A DNA stretch of 64,000 nucleotides from Macrostomum lignano (GCA_002269645.1 NIVC01000175.1:248001-312000), one strand, 5' to 3'. Positions 2,106 to 31,090 are shown, counted from the stretch's first letter. Made by a program: numbers and translations. Notes: generated by a model not told the origin, from the sequence alone.

Positions 2106-2133
2106 TAGCTGGCCTAGCTAGCCTAGCCAGATT

Positions 2134-4299: not shown

Positions 4300-4565
4300 C
4301 CAGCTGGGTTGGCAAAAGTTTTTTAACTCATAGGCCAGATAGAGAACCTAGGGCGTGACTGCGGGTCAGAGGAGTGGAAAGAAGGGGAAGAGAAGAAATG
4401 AGAGGCGAGGGAATAAAGAAGAGAGGGGAGGAAAGAAAAGAGAGAAGAGGAAAGAAAGGAGAGGAGAGCAAAGCGGAGAGAGAGGGGGGAGAAAGGACAG
4501 AAGAGGAGAGGAGAAAAGATGATAAGCGAGACGAGAGGAGAGATTTGACTAGGGAGATGAGAAGC
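4300..4565. repeat. GA-rich dispersed repeat with hAT-MITE-like end (GGGTTGGCAAA)
   Basis: The lead-in resembles about 57640-57720 and the inverted end GTTTGCCAACCCCTG at about 30903-30917; followed by a degenerate GA tract. Confidence 0.4.
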
Positions 4566-4846
4566 CAGACACAAAACTCGAGCGGGCCGGATTGCTATTG
4601 TGAAATTACAAAGGACTCGAGGGTCGGATAGAAAGGCTTCATGGGTCGGAGTTTGCTGACCCCTGACATACTCATAGACTGAGACATCTCTTCCTGGCAG
4701 AGACAATGTGACAAACGTGCAGTGTTCAGAAAGCTTCTATGCAGTGCGAGCCTGAACTCAGTGTGTTGTATTGCAGTCGTTGTCCGTTCGTCGTGAACTC
4801 AATTTACTTTGCTGAAGTGTTGTGCTGGAAATAAAGATTACCAGAT

Positions 4847-5398
4847 AGTAGAATGCATGAGGCGGCTTCTGGGACAAAATTTTTCACTTCCTCCATAATC
4901 CCATTAAATCCATCCATATTATCCCTGACAGAATCAGAAAAAAAGGGGGGTCGCACTCGCTCCGAAAACTTCGAACATAATCCTCCTAAATCCATCCATA
5001 TTATCCCCGACAGAATCGGAGCATAACAGATGTCGTACTCGCTCCGAAAACTTCGAACATAATCCCCCTAAATCCATCCATATTATCCCCGACAGAATCG
5101 GAGCATAACAGATGTCGTACTCGCTCCGAAAACTTCGAACATAATCCCCCTAAATCCATCCATATTATCTCCGACAGAATCAGAGCATAACAGATGTCCT
5201 ACTCGCTCACAAAACGTCATCCATAATCCCCCAAAATCCATCTATGTTATCAGAGCATAACAAGTGTCCTACATAATCCACTGACATCCACCCATAGCAT
5301 CTTCGAAACAATCAGAAAATAATCTGCATTCTTCTCCCCACATTCAATCCGCAACGCGAAACCAGATCCCTAAGACTTTAAATCATCAGCGCAGGGTG
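4847..5398 (+). repeat. Left TIR of the Polinton, containing 82-bp tandem units
   Basis: Near-identical reverse complement of about 24276-24745. Units start at about 4893, 4976, 5058, 5140 and 5222 (last one partial). Confidence 0.93.
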
Positions 5399-5435
5399 CT
5401 CATCCTCCGAAAAAAAATCTAAATTTTCTCTAAAA

Positions 5436-5675
5436 ATGTTTCCAGCTGTCTCTCCAGGTTCTTATTACAAAGCGCACGAGCCTAATTACAAGAGTAAGTA
5501 CCGATGCAAACTTGAATGCAGCGAATACATGAGAAAATATTGGCCCGGCATTGATATCAATGTCCCTAATATTAATCTAGCTCTCCAAAGACACTGGTTT
5601 CATAAGTATGGAGTAACCTATGTAAAATATTACGACAGCTACTATAACTTTGCAGAAGTTATAAGGCAGTTGTAG
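5436..5675 (+). CDS. 79-aa Tyr/Lys-rich hypothetical protein; inverted paralogue of 23869-24240
   Basis: 63 of 79 residues identical to the right-end copy, with silent and conservative changes; AAAA-ATG start like other element genes. Confidence 0.7.
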   Translation: MFPAVSPGSYYKAHEPNYKSKYRCKLECSEYMRKYWPGIDINVPNINLALQRHWFHKYGVTYVKYYDSYYNFAEVIRQL

Positions 5676-5736
5676 TTGGCAACTACAAAGTTGTACCTAG
5701 CGGTTTATATCGTAATTTTACAAGTCTGAAGACGAC

Positions 5737-6594
5737 TCACATTCTCTCAATAATAATTGTTAACACAAACTCTTCCCCGTTAAAATCGACACCAACTCCA
5801 TCCTCTGTTTCAAACTGCAGAACGATTTCATGTATCTCTCTATTACTCAGAATCACTCTTTTCACGGGGTTCGGCTTTTGCACAAGCATTTTGCCACCAG
5901 CAACAGAGTTTGAAATGTTAAAAAGTATGTTGGTTCGTTTGCCCTTGAATATCCAATCATGGCTCAGATTGCTACGAATTAATATATTCAAACCTTTGAC
6001 AATGTCAGCGATATTTGGCGCCAAGTACATACCGGATATTAGCCGGGACACAGCAACAGTGCCAGGCGCCTGCAGCGGGCTTTGGTCTGTGGCGCCACCA
6101 TAAACTCTCTTTTCAAATCCCAACTCGCGATACCAAGTGCCATCTTTAAACTCTACCTCTGCGTCCTTATGAACTTGCAAGACAACTCTCATGACAGTTA
6201 GATCATAAGTTAATCTAACAGGGAACAGTTTATTTTCTGGTTTGCTTTCATCCGGTATCTCAAAATGCTTTCGTTTAGTGAAGACGTTCTCCAAGAAGTA
6301 ATTATAAGTATCCACGCTCTGTGTGCTGACAGGAAATATCACAACCTCTGTTGTAGTACGCTTCCATTTGTAATAAAACTTGTTATTTTCCGCTGTCACA
6401 TTCGGAACATTTGACCACCCAGTGAAATCATTGAGATGGACGTGGTAATTCGCCTCGGGATCCAAACGAAGTGGTTGCTCCAATTTTTGAATGAAGATTC
6501 CGTTTGACTCAGTAATGCGACCCGCTACAGTGATTGGAATGCTCTCCTTAGAGTGTGAAACAATGTTGTTTAGTCTTTCGGCTATGGCTTCCAT
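5737..6594 (-). CDS. Minor capsid protein (penton-like, single jelly-roll)
   Basis: PLRL...VHL...SNVPNV...NNKFYY near the N-terminus and EIVLQFETEDGVGVDFNGE at the C-terminus; directly downstream of the major capsid gene. Confidence 0.85.
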   Translation of the reverse strand: MEAIAERLNNIVSHSKESIPITVAGRITESNGIFIQKLEQPLRLDPEANYHVHLNDFTGWSNVPNVTAENNKFYYKWKRTTTEVVIFPVSTQSVDTYNYFLENVFTKRKHFEIPDESKPENKLFPVRLTYDLTVMRVVLQVHKDAEVEFKDGTWYRELGFEKRVYGGATDQSPLQAPGTVAVSRLISGMYLAPNIADIVKGLNILIRSNLSHDWIFKGKRTNILFNISNSVAGGKMLVQKPNPVKRVILSNREIHEIVLQFETEDGVGVDFNGEEFVLTIIIERM

Positions 6595-6616
6595 TTTTTG
6601 ATTGAAAAAAAATTAT

Positions 6617-7912
6617 TCAAACTTTACTAGACGAGTTATTGATCATATTGACCTTGATCTTCCTCTCAAATGCATAGATAATAAACAGATCAACAGCCGT
6701 TGCGGCACCAAATTCTTTCCGCTCGATATTAGTCACAATGTTAACAGGGCTATTGTCTGTAGGCATTTGTCTAGCAGTCACATCAACACCAAATATTTGA
6801 TATAGTTTTTTATACTGCAAGGTTGTCAAAACAATACCGTTATTCTCTTTGACAGCCAGGTCCGACAGTTCATTGTAAAACTTACTAATCTTGTTCTCCG
6901 AGAAATTCCCATTTTGTGGCAATGCAGGGTATAAATTGTCACTGATCTCATGTTGAATCGATCGAATGTTTCCATGTAGATATCTACCTACATTAGTTGT
7001 ATTCCTCATAGTGACAATAATGTACCTTGGATTGCTACAGGAGCCTTCTTTAATGCAAATATTGTGTCTTGCGTCATTCCGCTCATCTCTGCACATATAA
7101 GCTGTATAAGCAACATCAATGTCTTTCTCAATCGCCTTCAAGTATTCAGCTTTGAGTGCAGTCTTGGGCTCAATAATTTCTAAGTACAGCTCCACGCTAG
7201 TTAGCTTAATCTCCATCGATGTATGATTGGCCCCCGACCAAATTCCTCTGTTCCGATCATCTCTAGTCAGTCTAAATGTGTAGCTAAAGTTGCTTGTCAA
7301 CCGATTGAAACTATTACAGAAACCACTCATAAACCTCAAAGGTACAAAAATATCTACAGACCTAAACAGCGGATTCTTAGCAGCATCGTTCTCACCAACA
7401 AGAGCATAGTTGTATCTCTCCTTTCTCTTTTTGTAACCAGGGTCATTCTCATCTCCTGTCTGTTCATTGGGGATGAATCCAGCACCGCTCCCCATCTGAA
7501 TAAAATCCGGGTTCTCAATCAAGCACTGGGTATCATAGACCACACCAAAGTTTGCTATTCTTTCCAACTCTGTACTTCCATTGGACACATTAAACTCTTT
7601 GAACATATAAGCCCAGAAATTACTGGTTAGTGCGACATCTGCATTGTGTAGATCATCATTAGCATGAGCGGCGTCTGCGCCTCCTTTAGTTTTGAATTGA
7701 AACGTCATATAGAAGCCACTCCTTAGACTGTGGACACTGACCAAAGACGAACATCCGTTGTATGTGAATGTCAGCGTTTGACCTGGACCCAAATTAGTTT
7801 CATTCTGATTTTCCTGACTGGGAACTCTTACCTGAGTCGCTTTGATTGTGCTATCGTCACTCAAAATAGGCTTGTTAATTTTGTAGAAAACTGGTGTCAG
7901 TGGGTCGTTCAT
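6617..7912 (-). CDS. Major capsid protein (double jelly-roll, Polinton PY/hexon-like)
   Basis: 431 aa; N-terminal DDSTIK...GQTLTF, central FVPLRFMSGFC and PRYIIV motifs typical of Polinton MCPs; position next to the penton gene. Confidence 0.88.
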   Translation of the reverse strand: MNDPLTPVFYKINKPILSDDSTIKATQVRVPSQENQNETNLGPGQTLTFTYNGCSSLVSVHSLRSGFYMTFQFKTKGGADAAHANDDLHNADVALTSNFWAYMFKEFNVSNGSTELERIANFGVVYDTQCLIENPDFIQMGSGAGFIPNEQTGDENDPGYKKRKERYNYALVGENDAAKNPLFRSVDIFVPLRFMSGFCNSFNRLTSNFSYTFRLTRDDRNRGIWSGANHTSMEIKLTSVELYLEIIEPKTALKAEYLKAIEKDIDVAYTAYMCRDERNDARHNICIKEGSCSNPRYIIVTMRNTTNVGRYLHGNIRSIQHEISDNLYPALPQNGNFSENKISKFYNELSDLAVKENNGIVLTTLQYKKLYQIFGVDVTARQMPTDNSPVNIVTNIERKEFGAATAVDLFIIYAFERKIKVNMINNSSSKV

Positions 7913-7942
7913 TTTTTAACTAAAAATAAAATAAAATAAGAA

Positions 7943-9148
7943 ATGAAGCGAAAAAGTACACAGCAGATATCTGAATTGGAGAAGCTAGCACAAGCAGAGA
8001 AACGAGTTACCGGGCTAATAAATAAGGAGCAACAATCCTACAATGAGTTTGTCCAAGCAGCCACAGAGTTTCATAAACCCGGATACACAGAAGCGAAGAA
8101 AAACCTCGACACTGTGAAGGAAGCAGTTGATGATATTCAAGAGAGCCAGTTGCAAAACACATTGGGTAAAATTCCATCTTCACCGGGACAACCACAGGCT
8201 CAGCAACCAGAACAACCAGTGCAGATGAATGTGACGGATAACTTTTTTGGCCCCGTATTGGATGATGGAAAATATATTTTTGGAATTAGCGCCTGGCGAA
8301 AAAAAATTACCGGGGAACCGGTGGATTACAACATTGAAGTGACAAAGGAAAATATTTCAATCAATAAAGGCGCAGAAACTAAACGAATCCCCTTCACTCA
8401 AACTTTACTTGATTACATGACTAAAAATCAGAAAAAAAGATCCGAGAAGCAGCTCGAAAATTACAAAGATCTTGTTACCTTTGCTCTCGATAGGGACATA
8501 GATATGCTCAAGAACAACGGTGTTTTGAAAATTTTACATGAAAAAGGGATTGTCTTGAACAATTGTAAAAAATACAAATACTTTAAACAATGGTTTGGTT
8601 TGCCGGATCAAGAAGAGGTCATAAGACAACAACCACAACCACAGCAGCAACAACCACAACAGCAGCAACCAAAACAACAACTACAACAACCACAACAGCA
8701 GCAACCACAAACACAACCACAACCACAACAACCTCCACCGCCACAGCAACAAATCACACCCGAACAAGTACTAGAAGCGCTTGAAAAAGCAGGGCCAAAT
8801 GAGATTTCCCAGTACAGAAACCAGCGCCCAGATGAATGGCGACAATTAGAACAGTTCTCCCCAGAACGAATGAAGCGAATCAATGACAGAGTATTCACAC
8901 CTAGGCTACAGCAACCCTCACCAGGAACATCCTTCTCTGACCAATCATTCGAATCACCACCAAGCTCTTCCGGAAAAGGCATGCCTGAATTCTACAAGCG
9001 AGCAGCGGTTCTTCTAGGAGCGGCAAAGACCGGAATGAAAGATGAGAATAGAAAAGAGTTCGTTCACATCCTCAATAAAATGCTTGAGAGAAAATACATC
9101 GATAAGAGGGCGAGAGAGCTTCTGCTTTCGCGGTTCAACAAAAAATAA
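7943..9148 (+). CDS. Polinton conserved hypothetical protein with a Gln/Pro-rich linker
   Basis: 401 aa. C-terminal RAAVLLGAAKTG...EFVHILNKMLERKYI resembles a recurrent Polinton helical motif (recalled, unverified). Q/P tract at about 8620-8755. Confidence 0.75.
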   Translation: MKRKSTQQISELEKLAQAEKRVTGLINKEQQSYNEFVQAATEFHKPGYTEAKKNLDTVKEAVDDIQESQLQNTLGKIPSSPGQPQAQQPEQPVQMNVTDNFFGPVLDDGKYIFGISAWRKKITGEPVDYNIEVTKENISINKGAETKRIPFTQTLLDYMTKNQKKRSEKQLENYKDLVTFALDRDIDMLKNNGVLKILHEKGIVLNNCKKYKYFKQWFGLPDQEEVIRQQPQPQQQQPQQQQPKQQLQQPQQQQPQTQPQPQQPPPPQQQITPEQVLEALEKAGPNEISQYRNQRPDEWRQLEQFSPERMKRINDRVFTPRLQQPSPGTSFSDQSFESPPSSSGKGMPEFYKRAAVLLGAAKTGMKDENRKEFVHILNKMLERKYIDKRARELLLSRFNKK

Positions 9149-9164
9149 TTTATTTCAAGTAAAA

Positions 9165-9545
9165 ATGCCACTTATTTTCGAAAAAGACATTGACAAATAC
9201 TATGACAAAGAGGAACTTAATCTCATTAAACGCGGATCCGGACTTTTCCCTGCCGGCCACTATCCAAGAAAAGAACGCTCTGGGAATGGCCTTGCCGATT
9301 TGATCGCTCAGGAGGCCAAGATTTTTAAGGTCATTGGAGAGAACAAAGAGAACATCAAGAACGTTGCCGAAGCGGCTGGCAGTGTAGCCACAGCAGCCAA
9401 AAAGATTAAAGATACGGTTCATGAAACCCGGAAATCAATACCAGATATTCAACCCCTTGCACCGAGTGCAGATAGTGTCGATCCAGCCATCTACGCAAAG
9501 ATGAGAGCTGAATATAAGAAAGGAGGCGGTTTTAAATTTGACTAA
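9165..9545 (+). CDS. 126-aa basic protein with G-x-G motifs (candidate virion core/precursor protein)
   Basis: First ATG after the upstream stop, in AAAA-ATG context at 9165; motifs KRGSGL, RSGNGL and KKGGGF. Confidence 0.65.
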   Translation: MPLIFEKDIDKYYDKEELNLIKRGSGLFPAGHYPRKERSGNGLADLIAQEAKIFKVIGENKENIKNVAEAAGSVATAAKKIKDTVHETRKSIPDIQPLAPSADSVDPAIYAKMRAEYKKGGGFKFD

Positions 9546-9721
9546 TTTGGTGCACCCTGACGGTAAAAGAGGTGTGAGGGTGTAGGACTAGTCGGATGTA
9601 GGACTAGTCGAAAAAAGACACACACAACCCGCAAAAAGACACACACATACACATCCCGAAAAAAAGACACACGCGTCTTAAATACACAAGTTTAAAAAGA
9701 AAAAGTTTTTTTACATAAAAA

Positions 9722-10522
9722 ATGGACTTCACAAACGACTTTCATCCCCACTGGACACGCAATCAGATAAAATTTGCTCACAACGAGATAATTCCAGGGC
9801 ACTTCCGATGCATTGTTGTTGGCTCATCTGGGTCAGGGAAAACCTTCAGAGTTTTTAACATGCTCCTCAGACCTGGATTCCTCGATTATGACACACTACA
9901 TATCTATTCACCCACTCTGTATCAAGATGAGTATAAAATGCTAGTAGCGGGCCTACAGAACAAACTCAACAAGGAAGATATTATTCAATGTTTTAGACAT
10001 CAAAAAGACCTCAACAGCAACCCGGAAGTTGTAGCCACTGAATACGCAAAGCACATCCCAGACAATGAAAAATGGCAAAACATTAAAGTTTTCACTTATG
10101 GAGATCCACAGATAGATCCTAAAACTAAACTCTTACCTCAACCTGATGAACTAGAAAAGGGGAGAAAGCACCTGATTGTCTTCGATGACTGCATGACCGG
10201 TCCCCAGAAACAGATAGAAAATTATTTCACCCGGGGTAGACATAATAATTGCAATGTTATTTACATTGCCCAAAACTGGTTTGAACTGCCAAATAAAACA
10301 ATTAGAGGTAACTGTAATTTGATTCTCCTTTTCCCAACCATACCACAGGATCGACTGAAACGATTTTATAATGAAGTCATTGCCCCAGCTCACATTACAT
10401 ATCCAGCTAAGAACTCTAACAGAACAATATCACAGGAGGAATTTGTTAACATATGCTATGAAAAGTGGAACCAACCCTATCAGTTTGTCATGATTAATAA
10501 GGAGAAAAGAATTTTACTTTAA
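9722..10522 (+). CDS. DNA-packaging ATPase (FtsK/HerA, poxvirus A32-like)
   Basis: Walker A GSSGSGKT, Walker B LIVFDD, and RGRHNNCNVIYIAQ. Confidence 0.95.
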   Translation: MDFTNDFHPHWTRNQIKFAHNEIIPGHFRCIVVGSSGSGKTFRVFNMLLRPGFLDYDTLHIYSPTLYQDEYKMLVAGLQNKLNKEDIIQCFRHQKDLNSNPEVVATEYAKHIPDNEKWQNIKVFTYGDPQIDPKTKLLPQPDELEKGRKHLIVFDDCMTGPQKQIENYFTRGRHNNCNVIYIAQNWFELPNKTIRGNCNLILLFPTIPQDRLKRFYNEVIAPAHITYPAKNSNRTISQEEFVNICYEKWNQPYQFVMINKEKRILL

Positions 10523-10538
10523 TTTTTCATTTAAAAAA

Positions 10539-11225
10539 ATGTCTATTAATTTTGCAGGTGAGTCAACTACAGGCAACAGCACTCTCACAACTTCCTTCCT
10601 TGACAAGCGCTACATTAACACTGATGAAGAGATCCCAGAGATCAAACTGAATAAAAACAGACTGAAAGCCCTAGAGCGCTCCATGCACCAGTTGCAAATA
10701 AACATGGAAGATCTCAGGCTTAAAGTAGCTAGGCAGAAGTTTGAAAGTGATAAGCTTTATGTGCCGTTGTTAAACGCAACTAATGAACTAAGGTCAGAAA
10801 TAACTTCGATAGTCTCGCTAATCAACGGCTTAAGATCGACAGTTAATCTTCTGGGAAATTCCACTGATAGACGGATGCGTATTCTTGAAGGAGGAGTTTT
10901 CACAAACACAGCTAAAGTAAATCATTTAGAAGAGTTCATGAACCAGTCAACAGCGTTGCATGATAGAATTAAAGAAAGACTTGAAGCATTAAAGAGAAAG
11001 GATGTATCACACAGTAGCTATCTAAACGGAATGTATAGCGCTTGGGGTAAAATAATAAGGAGGCTTGATCGTCTGGAGAGAACACTCAATCTTCGTGATA
11101 TTGCTATTGATGAAGCAGAATCTACTGCTCGTTCGGTCATTACTGCAGATGAAATTATCAAAAAGATGATTTCAAGCAACAGAACTTTTCAAAACAACAG
11201 ATCTTTCAACCGGGTAGTTTTGTAA
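10539..11225 (+). CDS. 228-aa predicted coiled-coil hypothetical protein
   Basis: Long heptad-like L/I pattern; ATG context shared with the neighbouring genes. Confidence 0.7.
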   Translation: MSINFAGESTTGNSTLTTSFLDKRYINTDEEIPEIKLNKNRLKALERSMHQLQINMEDLRLKVARQKFESDKLYVPLLNATNELRSEITSIVSLINGLRSTVNLLGNSTDRRMRILEGGVFTNTAKVNHLEEFMNQSTALHDRIKERLEALKRKDVSHSSYLNGMYSAWGKIIRRLDRLERTLNLRDIAIDEAESTARSVITADEIIKKMISSNRTFQNNRSFNRVVL

Positions 11226-11250
11226 TTTTTAAATTTTTTCTAGGAAAAAA

Positions 11251-11970
11251 ATGGCCCAACAAAATTCTCTATACGATCAGTCTCAATACGCTGAACCTAA
11301 AATACCGACAGCACCAAACCCAATGGCACCGAATTCGAACACACAAAGCCTGAATGCACCGAATCTGAATGCACCTCAATATGAGCAACAAAAACTCTAC
11401 CCCGTCATTTCATGTAACTCTCAACAATTTCGACTAGTGGAGATTCAAAAAATGCGAGATGACATTGAAAAAAATATTTTCCACAACACAGAGAAAATTA
11501 AACGCTATGACAGCCACTGTAAATTTTTCGACTACAGCAATATGATTCTAGGATCTGTGTCTGTTCTATCTGGATCTGCTGCGGCTGTCTCAACGTTGCC
11601 AGTCATCACAGCCCCAATCGCAATCCCACTCGGCTCTGTGGGTGCTGCGTGTGGACTTATTTCAGCAATTACTGGAGCATTAGCGCGAAACAGGCGAAAA
11701 AAACTAAAGCAGCTACAGGAGAAGCAAGTAAAAGAGAAAGGGGTGCACACATCAATCATAGGGTACATTTCAAGGGCAATCGAGGATAAGTTCATTTCAG
11801 AGGATGAGTTCAAAACCATTCAGGATCTTTATGAACAATCAATTCGAATGAACTTGAACATGGTCGGTACTGATGACATGAGTCAGTTGAGAAATGAACT
11901 CGAGAAATTTCTTCAACATTATGTGGAAAGAAAGTCGGCAAGAAGGACAACGAGAAATACACCACAATGA
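11251..11970 (+). CDS. Conserved Polinton protein with a hydrophobic Gly/Ala-rich hairpin (probably the type called GasderminX in adintoviruses)
   Basis: FRLVEI...KRY, hydrophobic segment ILGSVSVLSG...GLISAITG, then ISRAIEDKFISEDEF. The family name is recalled, not verified. Confidence 0.72.
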   Translation: MAQQNSLYDQSQYAEPKIPTAPNPMAPNSNTQSLNAPNLNAPQYEQQKLYPVISCNSQQFRLVEIQKMRDDIEKNIFHNTEKIKRYDSHCKFFDYSNMILGSVSVLSGSAAAVSTLPVITAPIAIPLGSVGAACGLISAITGALARNRRKKLKQLQEKQVKEKGVHTSIIGYISRAIEDKFISEDEFKTIQDLYEQSIRMNLNMVGTDDMSQLRNELEKFLQHYVERKSARRTTRNTPQ

Positions 11971-11974
11971 ACCC

Positions 11975-12376
11975 CTATGAAACACAGCCAAGAATAATTT
12001 CCTTGTAGGTCTTTCGTGTTTTGGTCATTGCATACAAAACAGTCATGCACAGCTCACCGCAAATATCACTGCTAAGACCTTGGAGAATAAAGTCTGAGCG
12101 ATAAATTTTTTTATTGTTTTTCCCCTTCATATAATTTCTTAGCTCTTCTGGTACTGCCGTACCATAGCTATCGAAGTAATAACACTGGTGCTTGCGATCG
12201 GGATCAATCACCCAGCAAACCCAATGAGATCCTGGCTTATCGGTGGTGTCAAAGTTCATGATGCCGCATTCTTTTCTTAGAGGAAAATCAGACAGAGTGT
12301 CCCTCATAAATATTCCTCTAAAGTTTGGGATTTCCAGTTCGTTAGCCAAATCTTCAAGAAAGTTATTTGTCGTCAT
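11975..12376 (-). CDS. Adenain-like cysteine maturation protease
   Basis: GSHW (His), YFDSYG (Asp), LQ...DICGELC (Gln/Cys). Confidence 0.93.
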   Translation of the reverse strand: MTTNNFLEDLANELEIPNFRGIFMRDTLSDFPLRKECGIMNFDTTDKPGSHWVCWVIDPDRKHQCYYFDSYGTAVPEELRNYMKGKNNKKIYRSDFILQGLSSDICGELCMTVLYAMTKTRKTYKEIILGCVS

Positions 12377-12943
12377 TTTTTATGAGGTTTATTAAACTTT
12401 CTCTTAAACCTAAACCTAATCTCAACCTCCTAAACCCAATCTCCTAAACCTAATCTCCAGTGCCCGAACGGTAGACTGTTAATATTGTCATCAAAAATGA
12501 ATCTTTTATTATCTGCACCTGACAGTCCAATCTTTTTTTGCTGAATTGTGTGAATAATATGGTTTTTGGATTGTAGCTTTGAGAACTCATGTGATGTCTT
12601 TTTGTTGCAATTCAAGGCGTCTCTGTATTCAGCTTCATTAATTTCCTTCCTAACCACGCGTTTTGGAATTCCCTTTGATTTTTTAATTGGGTCTGACGAC
12701 TCACATTTTACAAAATACGTCAGTTTGAGGCAGGTATCTGACTCTAACTGGTTTTAAACCCCCCGCGCCGGCCCGGCCTCTTTTTGGTGGGTTGGTGGGG
12801 TGCTGGTGCTCTGCGTGCGTGCAGGGCTTAGGGCAGCCTCCCCCCCGCTCTGTGCTATTTAGTCTCGCGTCGCGGCCGCTGAGTCGGCGTAATTTTGGCA
12901 AAATATTTTTTGCCTGCCTGATTTGCCAAGCACTGCACTCACA

Positions 12944-16449: not shown

Positions 16450-19400
16450 AGCTATTGCTTGGACCTGTTTTTTTTTGGCTTGGTTTAATTTTTTCTGCGG
16501 CTCGTTGATTTGATTTTACACGCTTGTCTCCTTCCTCCCTCTTTCTGTTGGTGTTGGGGTTCGTTTTCCCTTTCTGGGCCGCGTCTGCCGGTCTTTTGTG
16601 CCACTTGCTTTTACTCTGCGTTAGTCTTTTGGGGTTTAATAGGACTTTGCTCTCAACCCAATGAATTCAGTGATTATGTCACCAGCAATCTCGTCCTTCA
16701 TTTTCCCAATCACTTTCTTGTTAGTGGCGTCAAACACTTGATCGCCATTCTGTGTCCTGAAAGATTCATCATACTCAGACAAGTCAAACAAATCTTTTTG
16801 CTGCAGCATGTCCTGATAAATGTCTTCTGTTTGAATGTCCATAATAAAACTGTCTGTGTCAGTGTACAAGAGTTTCATTTTATCCTTGTACTGCTGCTTC
16901 ATGCCATAGAAGAACTGGTACATCAGACGTTTTGATTCGTCGAGAACAGTGACACCTGTATAGATCGGCTTGCGCAGCGTCACCTTGGTTTTGTAAAATA
17001 TGATCACACCTAAGTAGCTATTAAAGATATGGAGTTCTTTGAATGTTGGCTTTGACATATTTGCCTGAATAACAGCAGGCTCTGATGAGGTAACAAGTTT
17101 CAGGTTTGTTCTTTTCCGCTCATTCTCAAGAGTCTTGCCATAGACAGAGTTGTTGGCCAACTTAAAGAGGTTCTTGTCAAAGTCGTTGGTTGCTTTGGTC
17201 CTAAACTGGGTGTTCTTATCAATGTAGGGTTTCATCCACGCTTCCTCTGTAAATGTAAGAGCCCTGTGAACTTTGGTGACCCTGCAACCAAGTGAGATAA
17301 AATACTGAAGCAGTTTGTAATGAATTTTGTAACGTGTCTTGTTGTTTAGATTCTGTGTTAGTTTCTCTGTATGTTCTTTTTCTGTTCCTTACAGGTGCCA
17401 AGTTCCATAGGGAGTTTCGATTATTTTCGGGCACTTGATGTTCTCTGGGAAGGGTGGAAAGTCAGAGAAATAGTCGTGAAGCTCTGGTGGAATGTAAACA
17501 TTAACCTCATAAATGGCAGCCAATGAAAAGTCCCATTTGAATTTTGATACGAGTAGCCATCGAAAATCTCTAACTGGAAGATATTGACTCATCGCCCAAC
17601 CGTAGAGATTATTAGCGTCCAAGTAAGTAATGTAGTTTGAGGGCTGCTCCTTATTGTAAGATTCAATGTAGGGATTGTTTGCCTTTGCATATCTATGGGT
17701 GCAAATTGAGATCCCCCCTCGCTTTGACGATTCGACAAAATTGTACATGTCAATGTCTGTAAGAAGTTCAATGTACCAATCTGGATCTTGATCCCATTTC
17801 ATTTTAAGCAAAGATTCCCAGCTAGTGGCAGGGAGAGACACATAATGTGCTGGATCGAGGCCATATGCTGTGTACCAGGTGTATCTGAAGGTTTCAAACA
17901 CATCGGCCAGCAGAAACACATCTGTGAAGAGGTAAAGCAGGTGATACTGGAAGAAGTTTTGACAATTAAAGTAATTATAGACATGCTTCGCGTGCTCATA
18001 GTCTTTGTCAGAGATTCCAGAGTCTGTTAGCCTTGAAAAGAATTTCTCCTGTGGTGGTAAACCTTCTTCAAATACGTGATACCCAGTAATATTCTCATAG
18101 GGGTAGAAGCCTTTCTTTCTTAAAAGTTTAAATAATTCATCAGTTCTTGCAAATATCTTTGTATATGTACATTGTTCATCTTTTAGATTCTTGCTTAGTT
18201 CGTCTAGACTGGCAGCTAGAAATTGATATGAATCCTTCAGTCTTATTTTACCTTTACTGTTACCCGAATTATCCTGTTTAATATCAACACACTTAAACTT
18301 CTCCTTGTTCTCTGCGATGCAGTCAAGGTGTATGTCTTGAATCATGCCGATTTTTTCAACTATTAAATGCATGTCATAGTTCTTTGCGTTGTGACAAAAT
18401 ATCGTTAGATCATGAATGTTCGATTTTAGCTTTAGATTACAGGTGTTATGCGCTGCACCTCTAAATTTCCCAGTAAAGTGACAGTGGTCCCTAACGGTGG
18501 GGTTTTTTATATCAGTGCAAGTTAACTGTTTCCTGCAGATGTGGCAATGAGTTGCTGATAGGAAATTGCTTTCATCCTCCTCAGTCATCATTATTGGAAC
18601 AGGTTGAAAAGTGCTAATCACTCTTTGCAACTCTAACATTCTGGCAATAAACTGCTCCACACACTGCTCTCCAAAGAAATAATTATACTCAACAAGTCCT
18701 TTTGTATTAATAAAGGCATATGCTACTGAATTAGGGACATGTCTTTGAGTTTGTTTTTGAGTTTGAGTTTGTTTTTTGAGTTTCTGGCATGATTGAGCAT
18801 TCGAAATCAGCATATACAACAAATGGGAGCTTCTCCATCTTGTGATAGTTCTTAAAACGGAGATACTTCTCTTCAGCTGAAGGAAGAGAGCAATTGGTCG
18901 GGTGATCCTCACATGATAATTCATGCTCTGCTAGTTTTTCAAAGCGCTCATGTCCACTGTAATGCTTAAGGCACAAGCGGCAGATGGCAACAGCCTCGTG
19001 ATGATTATTCAACTGTTTGTGAATGAGTCTTGAAAGATCTTTAATCTAAACATAGTGAGCCTCCTCTAGTAAATTACCAATCACTAGAAGATCCACTTCA
19101 GTCCGCCTTTTCCCCTCAGGATCTAAAACGTCTTTGCTACATCTGACCGGTTGAACTTTCTCAGTTTTTTCACTCCACTCAAAGACTGTTATTCTAATTT
19201 TGTTATTAAACACTTCTTCTAGCTTTGGGATCTGAGAGATCGCCAAGCCTCCTTTGTCAAACCTGATTCCCTTCTTTTCACATTCGATGAGATAGTGCTT
19301 GAAATAATTTTGATAATTTGAGGTTCTTTCGGGGTGGTGAGAGACACTATCATGATGAAGTGCAGAAAGAACTGCCCATAGAGCACAGCAGTTGTCTTTA

Positions 19401-20246: not shown

Positions 20247-20711
20247 TCACATCCGCATTATTGTAAACCCAGCATTGTGCAGTGTCATGATGGCTTTGAC
20301 AATGTCGGACTTGCTTACAGAATTTTGATGCACACAAGCATCATGATCATCACAATTATCAAAATCAGGGCAGCCCTCTCCTGCCTTAATTGTTATACCT
20401 TTGTCTCTTGCAATCTTTTGCAATTCTAGCTGGTGAGCTCTATCATTCCCAGCTTTAACAGCAGTTGCTACACCTCCAGCTACACCACCTGCGGCACTTA
20501 CGGCGCCTGCAATGATTGGGATAAGAGCTGCTAATGGTAGGATTCCTCCTGACTTTTCATCTGTGATGCTGTGTCTTTGCTCATTACACTGAACTATTTG
20601 CTGCACGGGATCGATTTTTACTTTGGCACCTTTAATTGATATAAGACCTGGTCTCTTTGATTCAATGATTTTATTGAGTTTATTGATGGTTCTGGTTTCA
20701 ATCTTTGCCAT
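20247..20711 (-). CDS. Adenovirus pX (pre-mu)-like core protein
   Basis: KSGGILPLAALIPIIAGAVSAAGGVAGGVATAV closely resembles the adenovirus pX C-terminus MRGGILPLLIPLIAAAIGAVPGIASVA. Confidence 0.7.
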   Translation of the reverse strand: MAKIETRTINKLNKIIESKRPGLISIKGAKVKIDPVQQIVQCNEQRHSITDEKSGGILPLAALIPIIAGAVSAAGGVAGGVATAVKAGNDRAHQLELQKIARDKGITIKAGEGCPDFDNCDDHDACVHQNSVSKSDIVKAIMTLHNAGFTIMRM

Positions 20712-21745
20712 TTTTTTATTTTAATATTTTGATGAAATTCTGTGTCAGCTGGTATCACTAGGAGTTCAGCTCTAGTGAATGACCGCGTGGGGGATTTAGG
20801 GTTAAAGGCCTGAGATAAAAAGTAATACTCTCCAGAGTCAGAGGTAAAATGTCTGTCTATTTTATGTACATCAAGGCTGAAGTATGGATCTGTAGCTCTT
20901 CTTTTGGTGTCTTTCTCTAGCTCTCCAGGTAGATATAAAAAGCGTAGAAACTCAGAGTTTGTCAGTATGTATGGTGATTCAACTCTTGGAAGCTTAGGGT
21001 AGTTCGAGGTGTGTTTTGTGTTGTGCTTGTTGTCTGTTCTATGAGGTGTCTTAAGTTTGACAATGTCTTGTTTAATTGCATGGGACGGTTTCAATCCAGT
21101 CATGCGTGTGACTTCATTGTTCAGTTGCTCTTTAACAGTAGGGAGTCTTTCTGTCCACTTGGTATAGTATTGCCCCGCACTCAGTTTGAGTTCTTGCGCT
21201 GTCTGCTTAGTGAATAGTCTCTTGGCTAGAGTTAGATTGAATCTTTCCACAAAAGCCTGGTCTCTGTGGAGCTCAGTTCTTCCGTAGCGAATCTTCGTAT
21301 TTTTCTTTTCCATAAGGGATTTGACTGCACCCATGAATTCCTTACCCGGGTCGGTCATAAAGGTTTGGGGGTATGTGAGCGGAGAGTTTTTATAAATATC
21401 TTGCAGTGCGCTGGCAACAACCTCTGACTTCTTCGTCTTGAGTGGGCGAGCTTCCTTATATCTGGAGGCAATGTCTGTAATTATAAGAGCATACTTGTAG
21501 CCTGAGTCATTGGGGAGAAACAGAAGATCTGCTTGGTGCGCCTCATTAGGTTTATAAATACTGAAATGGGGCCTTTCAAATTTTACTGGTGGGAAATAGA
21601 CTTGAAAGACAGCCTGCTTAGAGAGCCATTTTTCTACTGTAGCTTTTGGCTCCTTACTCAGCTCCATGAGTTTACTAACGGCATTTTTGCCTACAAAGAA
21701 TCCTTTGTCGCTGTAGTAGAGTTTTTTAAGTTTCTGATCTGTCAT
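20618..21745 (-). CDS. Retroviral-type (c-int) DDE integrase
   Basis: HQADL (D), TDPGKEF (D), VERFNLTL (E); N-terminal LKKLYY as in Polinton integrases. Confidence 0.95.
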   Translation of the reverse strand: MTDQKLKKLYYSDKGFFVGKNAVSKLMELSKEPKATVEKWLSKQAVFQVYFPPVKFERPHFSIYKPNEAHQADLLFLPNDSGYKYALIITDIASRYKEARPLKTKKSEVVASALQDIYKNSPLTYPQTFMTDPGKEFMGAVKSLMEKKNTKIRYGRTELHRDQAFVERFNLTLAKRLFTKQTAQELKLSAGQYYTKWTERLPTVKEQLNNEVTRMTGLKPSHAIKQDIVKLKTPHRTDNKHNTKHTSNYPKLPRVESPYILTNSEFLRFLYLPGELEKDTKRRATDPYFSLDVHKIDRHFTSDSGEYYFLSQAFNPKSPTRSFTRAELLVIPADTEFHQNIKIKKWQRLKPEPSINSIKSLNQRDQVLYQLKVPK

Positions 21746-21775
21746 TTTTTTTAAAAAAAAATTTTAAATAAAATA

Positions 21776-22276
21776 ATGCAACGCTCTGGCGGTAACTTAG
21801 ACTCACATGGACTGATAGAAAAGCTTCCTCATCCAAACAAAGGCTGGACACTTCCCGGCTATAAATATTGCGGGCCTTTGAATCCGCTTGAAATACAGCT
21901 GGATGGAAGCAACAACCCAAATCCTGGGCATGAGCCTGTGAACGAGCTAGACTCTGTCTGCATGTGGCACGACGTTAAATATAGAGATTTTCCTGAGGAG
22001 AAGAATCGCTGGGACAAAGAAATGCTCAGGAGACTCGACAATATGGGGATTTCAAGTGGGTGGAAGGAATCGATCGCTCGGAAGCTAGTTAAAGCTGTTA
22101 TTTTTGGTAAGACAAAATTGGGGTTGGGGGTGGGCGCTGAGGGTGGGTGTTTGGGAAGAGAGGGTGGGTGCACGGGGAGAGAGGGTGGACGCTCGGGAGC
22201 AGGGTTTATTTTGTGCGTTCCTAACAATGAACTGGGAAGACTGCTGAAAGAGCTGGGGGTTGAGAGAGACGTTTGA
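21776..22276 (+). CDS. Parvovirus VP1-type phospholipase A2 domain protein
   Basis: LPGYKYCGPLN (Ca-loop like) and PVNELDSVCMWHDVKY (HD catalytic dyad). Confidence 0.85.
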   Translation: MQRSGGNLDSHGLIEKLPHPNKGWTLPGYKYCGPLNPLEIQLDGSNNPNPGHEPVNELDSVCMWHDVKYRDFPEEKNRWDKEMLRRLDNMGISSGWKESIARKLVKAVIFGKTKLGLGVGAEGGCLGREGGCTGREGGRSGAGFILCVPNNELGRLLKELGVERDV

Positions 22277-22467
22277 GTCGGGAAGGGTTTAACTATTATT
22301 CTCAGCCCTGGCCAAACGCGACAGCTGCATTTGAAAAGTTGAGAAGCAGAAGGGGGGGGGGTCGATCGCTCGGAAGCTAGTTAAAGCAAGTAAAAAAATT
22401 CAGCTCATTTTGCTCGCACACGTTCTTCGTCACGCAATACTGCACCGTTGTGGCTGCTGATTTCATT

Positions 22468-23286
22468 ATGTTGTAAGTTTATTCATTTTTTACTTACTGA
22501 AATTCTAGAATTGAAAAATCTCTTATTTTAATTAAATCTTTGTTTTTTAGTTCACAAAAAATTACGTTCTACTCGACCGACCTAGAAAATCTCCACGGTC
22601 GCCTTGTTGAAGGATTAAATGCCGATGAACAGGCATCAGAGCGAATTCAAGAAGTTCTCCACAATTTCTTCAATGAAAAAGTTAAGAACCAGCGAATTCG
22701 TTCAAGAGCGGCCGAGGAGACCCAGGTTCGCAACTATGCCATGAGAACCGAAATGGTGTTTGACGAACTTCGCCGATCATTTGTTGCTGATGAAGATACA
22801 CTTCTTAGTTATCAACAAATGAGGAACTTTGTTGCCCAATTCCAAATGGATTCGGTCGATTCTTATCGTACGCACCATACAAATCTCTTGCAAACGGAGC
22901 AACAGGTGGATGGAAAGTCTGTTGCCGCGGCTTTCTGTATGGGGCTTATATATAAGAAGGCAAAATCCAGACGGCGGGCATCAAATCGAAGGGTTGCGGA
23001 AACTTTTGGTGTGAAGGAACATGAGGTGCAGAAGAAGCTCAAAATCTATGAACTTCTGACGTCGCTGCCTCGGTTGCAACACTGTAAAGCTTAAGTTTCC
23101 TTCTTGTTGGATAACGCTACTCTCATTTTAAGTGAGTACCGCTACCAACGTGACGCAAATATTTGGACTGACCCAACAGTTCCGCAAGCCAATCAAATGC
23201 CAGAAGGTGCTCATGGTAACGTTGTTATCCCTGGGGCGGCAAATGTGGCAGCAGCTGGTGGAACCGAGGATATGCAGGAGGGTTAA
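22468..23286 (+). pseudogene. Spliced accessory gene inside the Polinton, with a probable internal nonsense codon
   Basis: ATGTT|GTAAGT (22473)...TTTTTTAG| (22550) joins in frame to MFSQKITFY. TAA at 23092-23094 is followed by an in-frame continuation to 23286. Confidence 0.55.
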
Positions 23287-23344
23287 AGACACAATACGCG
23301 CTTGCATACCCAGTAAGTATAAATCTCCTGGAAGAACTCTGCCC

Positions 23345-23834
23345 TATACAATTTGCTGTACACGAAATGAGCGGGAGGAAAATCAAAATTCTTCTGGATC
23401 CGAATAATATCGATTTTGGATTGTGCGAGGATCTGCTCGTATACCCAGAAGTATAAATCTATATCAACCCTCGAAGAACTCTGCCCTAGCTGGACTGGAA
23501 AATGAAAAAGAAATGAAAAGAAATTTCTTTACTAGCTGTGGCTAGAACTGCATTGCATTCTCTCGAGTCTATAAAATCTATAGTTAACAACTCCAAGTCC
23601 AAGAGACAAGGGCGTTCTAGCTTCTATTGTGCTACAATTGAGGCACTGGTAAGCAAGAGAGGGAGAGAGGGACGGGACGGGAGCCATGGACGGGACGGGG
23701 CTGCTAGAGTCTGGCAAGCGGGCAGAATTATGGGGCTATTGCCATATACAATTTGCTGTACACGAAATGAGCGGGAGGAAAATCAATATTCTTCTGGATC
23801 CGAATAATATCGATTTTGGATTGTGCGAGGATCT
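23345..23834. repeat. 90-bp direct repeat, copies at 23345-23434 and 23745-23834
   Basis: One mismatch; copies are exactly 400 bp apart. Confidence 0.9.
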
Positions 23835-23868
23835 ACAATATCTTGTTCTTTCATTTCCAGCCGTGCAA

Positions 23869-24240
23869 CTAGCTCGCACGTCGCGGAGTAAATTCTCGGC
23901 CGGATAGCCCTGCACACTCAGTGTCTGCTCTTTCCTCCATATTTCCTCCTGTTTTATGTAAATATACTTGTGAATAAATGAACTCAGTATGTTTTTTAGT
24001 AAGCTTCAACTGCCTTATAACTTCAGCAAAGTTATAGTAGCTGTCAAAATCGTTAATGACTACTCCATGTTTTTCAAACCAGTGAGATTTAAGTGCTTGA
24101 TTAATATTAGGGACATTGATATCAACGCCGGGCCAATATTTTCTCATGTACTCCTTGCATTCTAGTTTGCATTGGTACCTACTCTTGTAATTAGGCTCGT
24201 GCGCTTTGTAATAAGAACCTGGAGAGACAACTGGAAACAT
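23869..24240 (-). CDS. 123-aa inverted paralogue of 5436-5675 with a C-terminal extension
   Basis: MFPVVSPGSYYKAHEPNY...DSYYNFAEVIRQL followed by about 45 extra residues. Confidence 0.7.
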   Translation of the reverse strand: MFPVVSPGSYYKAHEPNYKSRYQCKLECKEYMRKYWPGVDINVPNINQALKSHWFEKHGVVINDFDSYYNFAEVIRQLKLTKKHTEFIYSQVYLHKTGGNMEERADTECAGLSGREFTPRRAS

Positions 24241-24275
24241 TTTTATTGAGAATTTTATTTTTTTCAAAGGGTGAG

Positions 24276-24745
24276 GACCCTGCGCTGATGATTTAAAGTC
24301 TTTGGGATCTGGTTTCGTGTTGCGAATTGAATGTGGGGAGAAGAATGTAGATTATTTTCTGTTTGTTTCGAAGATGCTATGGGTGGATGTCAGTGGATTA
24401 TGTAGGACACTTGTTATGCTCTGATAATATAGATGGATTTTGGGGGATTATGGATGACGTTTTGTGAGCGAGTAGGACATCTGTTATGCTCTGATTCTGT
24501 CGGAGATAATATGGATGGATTTAGGGGGATTATGTTCGAAGTTTTCGGAGCGAGTACGACATCTGTTATGCTCCGATTCTGTCGGGGATAATATGGATGG
24601 ATTTAGGAGGATTATGTTCGAAGTTTTCGGAGCGAGTGCGACCCCCCTTTTTTTCTGATTCTGTCAGGGATAATATGGATGGATTTAATGGGATTATGGA
24701 GGAAGTGAAAAATTTTGTCCCAGAAGCCCCCTCATGCATTCTACT
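24276..24745 (-). repeat. Right TIR of the Polinton, one 82-bp unit shorter than the left
   Basis: Reverse complement of the left TIR, lacking one internal unit equivalent to 5058-5139. Confidence 0.92.
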
Positions 24746-27700
24746 CCAGATGGTCTTCCTGCGTCATTTTTCATTTTTCAAGCTCTCGATCGAAAGCTCT
24801 AGTACAATCCTCCGACCAGATAAAAGGAGTGGTGGGCTTCCGCAGACGGTTCAATGGTGCATTAACTTTGGAAGAAAATTCAGGAATGAGACGTCCAAAA
24901 AAATGACCAGCCCCAAAAACTGCTCGACCTCCGAAGAAAGTGCAATGTCATCGCATGAGTCAGAGTACTTTCTCGTTGACACTGACTTTCTTCTCTGCCA
25001 GCCTCGACTCGTCTTAACTGAGGTCTGCAGTATCGCTTACTAAGCGAGTCGGCATTCTCAGCAAGATAATATCTAGAACATCATCTTGAAAAAATAAGTG
25101 ACATGGAACCTTATTACATGTAGTGACTCAAGGTAAGGTTGATGCGAAGAGAGGCAACCCACACAATCTCTATGAATCCACTGCACCAGATGCCAGTCCA
25201 GTGGAATACATGTACACTAAGTAACCTGTCATACTATGAGTAGTGCCATAGGCGCACTTGTGTCTGTTTATTACATTTCGTGCGGGGAGTCAACGGATTG
25301 CAACTGCAGAGAATTGAGCAATCGTGCAGAAAAGCTTTTTTCTCTGAGAGAAGAAACGTTGCAAAGAGGGCTTTTTATGAAGAATATCTTTCAGTAAGCA
25401 AGCAGTGACACAGTTGCAGATGTGCTAGCTGGTTGTTGGAGTCTATACTGATAATCCACGCGAGGGACGCCTGCGGGAAGTGCCGGCATGAGGGTAGGGA
25501 GCTGAGTCTGCCGATGCTCTGGGTGAGTGAGCTGAGTTTTGAGTCTTTAGTCTTTGACTGCTGCATTACCTTGTCGATCTCTTGAACGGCATATCAAGGA
25601 GCCCTCGGAGACCTCCTGAGGACTTCCAGCGCAGAGTCGACGGCTTCATCTGCAGCTTCAACCGTGGCTGGTCGGAGTACATGAACGTCAGCGGATTCGT
25701 TCAGAGCGAGAGAGTCTCAACTACTGGATGGGGCTGAAGCAGCTGCACTAGCTCACCGCCGCTGCAGTGTGGAGAGTCCACTGGGAGTCAGCGACTGAAA
25801 CGGAACCTTATACCTGGCTGAGAATGCTCCATTTTCTGTTGGCCCAGCGGCTAACAAAAGTACAGCTGTACTCGATGGGATCGCTGGACGCGAGCAGGTT
25901 GAGTGTCAGACTGCAAACTGATTGGTACTGGTCTCAGCTGGTCGCCCAAAGAGAGGTCCCGCCGGCTGGTGGTACGATCAATGCACTTTTATCAACTCCA
26001 ACGGAGTGTTCCGGCCTGCTTCTAAGCGTAGGAATGTACTATCATCTGCCCTGATGCGATGAAGCTCGAACTTCGAATGTTTGATTCGCCAGTATCGTGA
26101 TGACGGAGAGCCAATCCGTCTAGCTAAAAAAACTGCATGGATTGATAAAACTTAACAGTCTTAACTTTTCTTCTAGACAGTTGACGGCTGCCTACATGTA
26201 GTATGTCAGGTCGAGAGCTCAGATGCCTATTATGAACTTTCGGTTAGGTTAGTCAATAACGCCCATAGGAGCTGGCCTTGTGAAGGATTATGCATTTCGG
26301 CAATGAGAAGTTTCGGCCTAGAACCGCCCATTTTTATCAACAAAAGTGCTCTATTTCACGATATTTTTTGCAAAAAGATAATATTTATGAAAAAGATATT
26401 GTGACGTTGTCCTGCAGTTTCAAGGGCCATTTTGACATACGGTACAATCTTTAAAATTACCGGTTTCGTATTCTCACGTCTGCCTAAAGTAGTGCCCTAA
26501 GAATTTTAATCAGCTGCGTACAATTGTAAACCCTGCGTACAGCGCGCGATCGATAATTTCTGTTTCTGTTTTTCCCAGCCGGCCAATAGGAAAGCCACGC
26601 ATTAATTATACTAATTTCTCCTCGCGCGCCACCCCCAGCCCGCTCCTTATCAGTTCTGTCTGGCCGTGCGCTCGGGCTTTAGACTCCTTTAGACTCCTTT
26701 AGACTCCTTTAGACCCTTGCGATCCTTGCGAGTTGCGACCCGTTTGGAGCCTTTACCTGTTTAGACTCCTTTGCTCCGCCGCCACCCTTGCGAGCCCGTG
26801 TAGACTGTAGACTCTTGCCGCCTTTACTTGTTTACTTGCCTTCTCTCTCTCCGCCACGATTCTAGCCGCGCCTCTGCCACTCTCAGCCACGCCACTTCTG
26901 CTAAGCTATCTAACTTGTTGTGTAGCCGCCAGTGCATTGTTACGCCTTACTTTTGTTGACAATAAATATCAAGTCTGCAGCCATCGATCGCATTAACATT
27001 AACTAATATTACTGCCAAGTGCTACCGCTACAAATTTGCCTCTACCGCATTTATTTGCCTTCGCTTCTTGAGGCCGCCACACCTATATCGTCACAATTAG
27101 TTATAGTCCAATTTGTTTTAATGTGTAGCGCTGTGGGGCGGTGCGGTGCGTGTTTTAGGGAGACCCAACTTGCAGTCTCCCGAATTCCTAGCAGGCAGGC
27201 TGGCCTGCAAATTGATTGATCCATGAGCCGACAGACAAAAAGGCGGCGGATGAAGTCACTGCACATCAGTTCTAACTCGGCTACTTAATATATCCAATGC
27301 ACTTGCAGGACAATGTTAAACAAGAAGCATTGTGTGCGCTGAGTCTCCTGCTATCTCTGCACTCTGCATGCACTGCAGTCTACACTGCACAGCACAGCAG
27401 GCAGCAGGCATCAGCTTTTTCATAGTTTATTTTTTGTGTACGGCCAACTACAAATACCAGGCAAGGGTATTACTGGTAAGTTAGGCTGTGCCTAAAGATT
27501 GCTACATTGAGTTGTTGTTTGGCTAAACATTAACTGCTTTACATAGCAGTTAGTTAGTTTTTTAGCAGTACCAAACTTAAGTTAGGCCTAAAATTTAGGA
27601 AGATGCTTTTCTTTTCAATTTTATCTCTGTTTCATTAGAATTTGCTTAATAAATAATCTTTAAGATGGACATACACATTTTTTGAATTTGAAGTATTAAT

Positions 27701-30917: not shown

Positions 30918-31090
30918 TCCAGAGTTTAAGAAATCAATGGGAAACTGTTGACGCGGGCTTCTGATTTCAAAGATCTTGTCTGTGGTTGAAGGCTTCTATT
31001 CTGTTTTTGCTCTCCTGCCACACTTGCACCTACTACCCCCTGATTGCCTCTGATTGTGACTTACTTCCCTCTTATTGCGACTTAGTTGCT

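Follow-up and report, generated by a model that had tools for sequence, protein, structure and literature searches.

Polintons, also called Mavericks, are virus-like mobile DNA elements, common in the genomes of animals, with 5'-AG...CT-3' termini. Protein-primed replication of a linear genome bounded by terminal inverted repeats (TIRs), integration by a DDE enzyme and an adenovirus-like capsid module are described for the group (PMC11071308, in part also general knowledge of the field). Insertion leaves a 6-bp target-site duplication, and a Maverick is called intact when all of its core open reading frames (ORFs) are open and uninterrupted (PMC8097293). Endogenous copies are widespread and mostly degraded, and multi-copy families with fragmented polymerases are known (PMC8097293, PMC11131425, 10.1101/2023.08.22.554363). 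Adintoviridae, to which we compare the locus below, are now named Eupolintoviridae (PMC12451622). Here we describe an element of this kind in 64,000 nucleotides of Macrostomum lignano DNA (GCA_002269645.1, NIVC01000175.1:248001-312000), the whole of which is referred to as the window, with positions counted from its first letter. The element is very probably an integrated Polinton whose polymerase is of Alpha-adintovirus type. The genes of its capsid module are open, but four lesions break the polymerase gene, and independent replication of this copy is unlikely.

Element boundaries

The element is 19,899 bp long, from 4847 to 24745, with the ends AGTAG...CTACT. Its boundaries are made up as follows.

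4841..4846: left copy of the target-site duplication CCAGAT, abutting AGTAG at 4847
24746..24751: right copy of CCAGAT, abutting the CTACT that ends at 24745
4847..5680, plus strand: left TIR, starting with AGTAG; its 82-bp tandem unit has one copy more than in the right arm
24004..24745, minus strand: right TIR, ending with CTACT

The first-pass annotation had reported the CCAGAT duplication and AG...CT ends, and both were found directly against each other at the two edges; the duplication has the 6 bp described for Polintons. An identical 6-mer would arise by chance from base composition at about 2.3e-4. The TIRs had been called near-identical, which is true of their outer ~480 bp (97-99% identical, with one mismatch in the outer ~317 aligned bases) but not of the whole arms of ~740-830 bp, where 698 of 744 aligned bases (93.8%) agreed. 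Identity fell inward, from 171/172 (4847-5100) over 300/310 (5101-5410) and 106/118 (5411-5530) to 121/144 at the inner end (5531-5680), a gradient that would fit homogenisation from the tips. Since identity is graded in this way the TIRs are a poor clock, and their divergence was rejected as a measure of insertion age.

Core genes

The Pfam scan covered 21 translated pieces of the element. The core genes were assigned as follows.

5737..6594, minus strand: minor capsid protein (penton), 285 aa, single jelly roll with an insertion, from the predicted fold
6617..7912, minus strand: double-jelly-roll major capsid protein (MCP), 431 aa, PF21738 at E 2.9e-8, above cutoff
9722..10522, plus strand: A32/FtsK-type packaging ATPase, 266 aa, PF04665 at E 7.5e-7, Walker A and B present
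11975..12376, minus strand: adenain/Ulp1-type cysteine protease, 133 aa, PF00770 at E 4e-4, with the His, Asp, Gln and Cys motif residues
12430..20122, minus strand: gene of a protein-primed family B polymerase (pPolB) in five pieces, PF03175 and EndoVII PF02945
20247..20711, minus strand: adenovirus pX/mu-like core protein ORF, 154 aa, PF05829 at E 4.6e-7
20618..21745, minus strand: retroviral-type integrase, 375 aa, PF00665 at E 4.9e-8, D-D-E residues present
21776..22276, plus strand: parvovirus-type phospholipase A2 (PLA2) ORF, 166 aa, unfused to pX, PF08398 at E 2.7e-13, Ca-loop and HD motifs

Seven families of the element were above cutoff (PF21738, PF04665, PF03175, PF02945, PF05829, PF00665 and PF08398), together with PF02037 and PF00078 in the nested retroelement described below. 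The match of the protease to PF00770, at 20.5 bits, was slightly below the cutoff of 21.3. The 3' end of the integrase gene overlaps the start of pX by 94 nt in a different frame, and the integrase was 31% identical to a coral Polinton-derived protein. Target-site duplication, termini, TIRs, pPolB, integrase, ATPase, protease, MCP and penton all support the Polinton/adintovirus identity proposed in the first-pass annotation, and its estimate of about 15 genes agrees with the 15 Polinton gene starts annotated here, every named hallmark gene being present. The string AAAAATG was found at 12 of these 15 starts, and 12 of its 18 occurrences in the element, which has 574 ATGs, were gene starts; these starts mark one coherent gene set. 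The leader was 80-100% AT at 14 of the 15 starts, the sole exception being the gene at 22468, which has a predicted intron.

The capsid genes had earlier been assigned from sequence, and both assignments hold in the searches with predicted structures. A model of the MCP (pLDDT 51), compared with 48,161 PDB representatives, gave double-jelly-roll capsid or scaffold proteins in all ten best rows (Z 7.8-10.6, 274-338 aligned residues), the best being the faustovirus MCP (Z 10.6, root-mean-square deviation 6.2, 316 aligned), with which BFVD agreed. The penton model (pLDDT 63) matched the mavirus penton (Z 9.6, deviation 11.3, 210 aligned) and the Sputnik penton (Z 8.0); the six best rows were all capsid proteins of the same viral kingdom, and in BFVD the matches were viral minor capsid proteins (best E 6e-11). 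These fold matches were 6-14% identical in sequence, which is too low to separate an Alpha virion class, for which clustering of hexon and penton with Mayetiola-class references would be expected, from a Beta one.

The penton had 12 unnamed homologues at 53-63% identity. The MCP had 14 matches, comprising six near-full-length proteins at 69-76%, one fragment at 66%, four proteins at 41-44% and three at 22-24%, and none of the ten relatives looked up had an informative name. A profile search gave 626 representatives, 26 of them below 1e-30. In a FastTree phylogeny of 99 rows, consisting of the window MCP and those 98 of 163 fetched MCP-like proteins that were 380-520 aa long, the window MCP was placed in a set of six rows within a set of eleven, both with SH-like support of 100; beyond these eleven, near-full-length identities reached ~27% at most among the matches listed. 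For the MCP homologue P0001 the Atlas clusters were unnamed or double-jelly-roll (0.97, recognition below threshold). Searches of IMG/VR with the MCP alignment, the reverse transcriptase (RT) and the ATPase found no relative, and neither did those of the JGI metagenomes with the first and the last of these. Judged by these sequences the capsid clade is small and all of its members are unnamed.

Broken polymerase gene and nested retroelement

All six polymerase motifs sought (Exo I-III and Pol A-C) were found across the pieces of the pPolB gene. The gene is broken by in-frame stops at 19046-48 and 17389-91, by a frameshift between them near 18.75-18.77 kb and by an insertion of 3,920 bp (12718-16637). 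In alignments with five intact homologues, four extend to about 16640 and continue from 12684, and the fifth stops before the last piece. With these lesions the copy is likely replication-defective, and the element falls outside the intact Mavericks as PMC8097293 defines them. The first-pass annotation had called the element complete and implied an intact or active state; with a polymerase in five pieces and four lesions, one of them a retrotransposon, complete is wrong in the functional sense and the implied state is not supported. Degenerate telomere-like repeats, CTAAAC/CCTAAT, lie at 12400-12460, immediately beyond the 3' end of the gene.

For the central polymerase piece 7,068 of 8,000 scored candidates matched, the best 120 at 39-45% identity, and the best matches included the PolB of a Corynactis coral adintovirus, a Stylophora protein and a Ladona protein. 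The polymerase appears to be of Alpha-adintovirus type, the OTU being judged from one Cys motif and the class from the best matches.

The insertion, here called the passenger, has the following parts.

12718..16637, plus strand: nested GC-rich retroelement, 3,920 bp, putatively Ngaro/PAT-like, with the 4-nt core AATA at both edges and a 5' hairpin
12944..13969, plus strand: gag-like ORF, 341 aa, with an N-terminal SAP domain (PF02037 at E 2.6e-7) and a C-terminal Cys/His knuckle
13858..16449, plus strand: RT/RNase H frame overlapping gag, PF00078 at E 2.4e-17, YLDD and RNase H acidic motifs

The locus was compared with contigs of public sequencing runs (Logan contigs), in particular those of four runs, X1, X5, X11 and X12. 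The stop at 17389-91 was missing at full depth in all four, and at the frameshift site 53-68% of the depth in each carried the listed difference from the window copy. In X12 the polymerase gene is uninterrupted in one contig that passes the insertion site; a second contig, among the 24 of 675 loose-end rows listed, runs from the 3' end of the passenger through the AATA core into its 5' start. The same AATA core is thus shared by both edges in the window, the uninterrupted site and the end-to-start junction. One 4-nt core at the edges, the end-to-start junction and the empty polymerase site argue together for insertion of the recombinase type; such junctions are expected from tyrosine-recombinase retrotransposons that have split direct repeats or pass through a circular intermediate (PMC4157794, PMC9210276). 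A piggyBac-like passenger with a TTAA duplication and short CCCC/GGGG ends was considered and rejected, as the X12 contigs set the edges at 12718 and 16637-41.

The breaks could also be read as assembly errors or as a collapsed repeat chimera in what is really an intact, active provirus. The perfect target-site duplication, the single mismatch in the outer TIRs and the open state of the other core genes agree with such a provirus, as do homopolymer differences between window and runs and the fact that no contig of the four runs has the stop at 17389-91. However, this would require all four separate lesions to be artefacts, the AATA pattern of the passenger is that of a real recombinase-type insertion, and one copy among many would be invisible in contigs, which drop rare variants. 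We consider an intact provirus highly improbable.

The order of events may likewise have been different, with the polymerase defective before insertion in a non-autonomous sub-lineage that was replicated and integrated in trans by helper copies, so that the insertion is younger than some of the lesions. A very clean target-site duplication and very clean TIR tips beside four lesions in one gene would fit this; the difference at the frameshift site reaches only part of the depth, so that other copies may have the same frameshift; and hosts with hundreds of copies, all polymerase-fragmented, are described in PMC8097293. On the other hand, no other copy appears to have the stop at 17389-91, and short contigs align ambiguously in the repetitive linker that contains the frameshift. 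This sequence of events is the less probable one, and we favour point lesions acquired in this copy or its recent ancestors.

The passenger has a GC content of 63.6% against 40.6% in the rest of the element. It was not mentioned in the first-pass annotation, although about one fifth of the span reported there belongs to this second mobile element. The RT frame had retroviral RT matches at E 1e-5, and within it a 12-bp tandem array (~14040-14730) encodes an Ala/Gly/Pro tether; ORFs on other frames or strands of this array were dismissed as repeat artefacts. The first 40 bases fold as a hairpin (z -3.3, one of 200 shuffles as good). Six-frame translation of the 3' part gave no ORF or catalytic motif of a tyrosine recombinase, apart from one weak G-x-W-x-S stretch. 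No methyltransferase or integrase ORF was found in the passenger, and no split direct repeats (A1...B1A2B2) or terminal repeats in a self-comparison of 12690-16660. From its sequence we infer a Ngaro/PAT-like tyrosine-recombinase retrotransposon, which either was moved in trans or lost part of its sequence once inserted; as this copy has neither recombinase nor split repeats, it is not established as a member of Ngaro or PAT. In the nematode form of Pat1 the internal repeats precede the recombinase (PMC4157794), so that a single recombination between B repeats could delete recombinase and repeats together. Contigs of X1, X11 and X12 were colinear with the window across the end of the RNase H frame, that of X11 extending into the 3' tail, and the recombinase-less form is therefore not private to this copy. 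Compared with the flank, the passenger was ~4- to 16-fold deeper in X1, X5 and X11, with a higher ratio in X12. The organism thus seems to have several copies of it, and how a recombinase-less element of this kind is mobilised becomes a question.

The family in public sequencing runs

Of 24 runs listed, 20 (seven studies, all of one organism) contained 0.56-0.65 of the words of 4300-13900; none of the runs that contain the family is on record as RNA. The depth comparison in the four runs covered 14750-25100, with the left flank outside this stretch. Summed core depth, from polymerase to PLA2, was 2,018-3,916 against 21 in the right flank in X1, 33,531-231,696 against 488 in X5, 247-1,060 against 11 in X11 and 74-197 against 1.1 in X12, ratios of ~100-fold or more in X1 and X5 and of 20- to 180-fold in X11 and X12 which, being contig depths, are not copy numbers. 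X11 and X12, which we guessed to be RNA runs, had a DNA-like depth profile with the TIRs deepest. Contig identity to the window ranged from <90% to >99%, with 347 variant places. The family is diverse and apparently high-copy, in the sense of many copies, and includes copies with an uninterrupted polymerase gene.

Such depth might instead come from free, replicating linear viral DNA during infection or reactivation. Core and TIR depth far above the flank in all four runs, open morphogenesis genes and the presence of family words in so many runs are compatible with this. The spread of contig identities and the number of variant places are rather those of a diversified repeat family, and runs dated 2015 to 2024 resemble each other in this respect, every listed run with the family being of one organism. 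Free viral DNA is an unlikely source of the depth, and we keep to many integrated copies.

The flank contigs of X1, X5 and X11 start exactly at 24746, the first base of the target-site duplication, with unlike letters before it and ~92-95% identity to the window. An empty allele or a paralogous site at this position is probable. The earlier suggestion of a fairly recent insertion is in keeping with the perfect duplication, with TIR tips that are almost identical and with the probable empty site, without a date being attached to it.

A bolder interpretation would be that of an active, high-copy, virion-making polintovirus family, with a distinct capsid clade, swappable cassettes and one spliced gene, hunted by a recombinase-less Ngaro/PAT family that targets Polintons. 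We regard this as doubtful. If true, it would be an animal version of the virophage-Ngaro nesting of Cafeteria, and Polinton particles could be searched for in a much-sequenced organism.

Interpretation

Our preferred reading remains that of an integrated Polinton with a broken polymerase. The pPolB of the family would make a linear, protein-primed double-stranded copy, and the DDE integrase would insert it through a 6-bp staggered cut, giving the CCAGAT duplication. Assembly and maturation of an adenovirus-like particle would fall to MCP, penton, ATPase, protease, pX and PLA2. A Ngaro/PAT-type cDNA would have been recombined into the polymerase gene at the 4-nt core by a tyrosine recombinase encoded elsewhere; its own recombinase would be missing through either internal deletion or recombination between its split repeats. 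Most likely the point lesions are recent, acquired by this copy or its near ancestors, whereas the family as a whole remained numerous. The copy would not make a polymerase of its own, but its TIRs, integrase and capsid genes may still be usable in trans.

Several observations weigh against this reading. The stop at 19046-48 was not among the 40 of 347 variant rows listed, and a 1-nt homopolymer difference at 16470 was at full depth in all four runs; since the window assembly may carry small errors of this kind, single point lesions could be artefacts. Among the rows listed no contig joined retroelement to polymerase or TIR to flank of this copy. The class of the passenger is drawn from its motifs, the layout of its ORFs and a single junction contig. 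By pLDDT the confidence of the two capsid models is low to moderate, the 98 proteins in the MCP tree included no named reference, and the family's abundance is read from contig depth.

A single locus of this type is of little weight, degraded Polintons being the norm in animals (PMC8097293) and nested retroelements being on record (PMC8547959). It points, however, to a numerous and diverse family with uninterrupted-polymerase copies and an unnamed capsid clade, present in at least 20 public runs from seven studies. As of 2021 Maverick particles had not been observed, according to PMC8097293, and it would be reasonable to look for them where a well-sampled host carries a high-copy family whose virion module is open.

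Accessory genes and surrounding sequence

The remaining features of the element are the following.

5436..5675, plus strand: TIR-encoded ORF, 79 aa, no assigned function, shorter twin of 23869-24240
7943..9148, plus strand: ORF of 401 aa with a Q/P-rich linker, no assigned function, no family above cutoff
9165..9545, plus strand: ORF of 126 aa, no assigned function, no family above cutoff
10539..11225, plus strand: ORF of 228 aa, probable coiled coil, no assigned function, weak coiled-coil-type matches below cutoff
11251..11970, plus strand: ORF of 239 aa with a central hydrophobic stretch (about residues 109-145)
22362..24000: variable right-hand cassette, with far lower coverage in public runs than the core
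22468..23286, plus strand: accessory gene, no assigned function, with a predicted 78-nt GT-AG intron at 22473-22550
23869..24240, minus strand: TIR-initiated ORF, 123 aa, no assigned function, no Pfam or PHROGs family above cutoff

That several ORFs have no recognisable function, as had been noted earlier, agrees with the searches, in which those at 7943, 9165, 10539, 11251 and 22468 and the TIR pair had no Pfam or PHROGs family above cutoff. Accessory ORFs of this sort are normal for Polintons. The product of 11251..11970 is likely a membrane-active or virion protein. One gene begins in each TIR, the products being unequal in length (79 and 123 aa), and the pair differs by nine non-synonymous and five synonymous codons over the first 57. 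Rfam gave no matches within 4800-24800.

The depth over 22362-23745 drops to 37-125 in X1, for which reason the cassette is taken to occur in few copies. A 26-bp exact duplication (22070-22095 and 22362-22387) marks its start, and a 95-bp direct duplication lies inside it (23340-23434 and 23740-23834). Joints in the public runs at these two duplications suggest recombination-driven change of the cassette. The 22468 gene has an in-frame stop at 23092-94, and its Atlas clusters were weak, helix-turn-helix-like regulators (0.92, recognition below threshold). None of the 15 of 26 joints listed fell at its predicted intron. Contigs of X11 end at 22549-22552, next to the predicted acceptor, which is a weak hint only.

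No host gene was recognised within the window. Fragments with an RT bearing YVDD and a GIY-YIG-like C-terminus lie at 37679-38717 on the minus strand, which we take from these motifs to be a Penelope-like element. Decayed DNA-transposon fragments at 32437-33012 and 40534-41332 presumably include, again from their motifs, a hAT-like dimerisation region and DDE_1/pogo-like pieces. At 61586-64000, minus strand, GC-rich long ORFs resemble the end of a long terminal repeat retrotransposon, and inverted repeats lie at 60150-61334. Minisatellites were found at 1978-2900 (17-bp unit), 3234-3743 (21-bp), 31012-31813 (20/21-bp) and 51286-51723 (18-bp).

Comparison with known systems

The element is an ordinary member of a known group. 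The earlier suggestion of a possibly undescribed lineage holds at the level of the family, for which no named close relative was found and whose capsid clade is unnamed. A literature search outside Repbase and subscription papers found no paper on this Polinton family, nor any, by title or abstract start, on DIRS-type elements nested in Polintons; the family is probably uncatalogued. Its sequences would pair a common Alpha-type replication module with a small unnamed capsid clade.

With Polintons/Mavericks (Polintoviricetes) the element shares the TIRs, 6-bp target-site duplication, pPolB, rve integrase, ATPase, protease, MCP and penton (PMC8097293, PMC11071308) and, once the passenger is subtracted, a length of ~16 kb. 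It differs in its broken polymerase and TIR-initiated genes. No introns were seen in intact vertebrate Mavericks (PMC8097293), whereas here one is predicted in an accessory gene.

Its polymerase was 40% identical over 94% of the query to the Corynactis coral adintovirus PolB, with which it shares the EndoVII insert, and Corynactis, Ladona and Stylophora elements stand in the Alpha-PolB panel of PMC8502044 (Suppl. Fig. S2). A PLA2 gene and a pX domain are tied to Alpha virion modules in the same paper. In contrast to the fused PLA2X there, PLA2 (21776-22276) and pX (20247-20711) are separate here and on opposite strands, and the MCP is at most ~27% identical to anything listed beyond its 11-member unnamed clade.

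RT labels also appear on the adintovirus maps in that figure. Compared with Pat1-like and Ngaro elements (PMC4157794, PMC9210276), the passenger copy is without recombinase or methyltransferase ORF and without split direct repeats. It resembles them in the overlapping gag and RT/RNase H frames, the Cys/His knuckle of Gag, the absence of a classical target-site duplication and the joining of its end to its start, which a B-A junction or a circle would give. The Ngaros in virophages of Cafeteria burkhardae (PMC8547959) are ~6 kb long and sit in a virophage, while the passenger is 3.9 kb, sits in a Polinton and has neither a recombinase ORF nor A1-B1A2B2 repeats. In both cases a GC-rich element with gag and RT/RNase H interrupts an AT-richer endogenous double-stranded DNA virus, and one of 20 insertions in Cafeteria lies in pPolB, as it does here.

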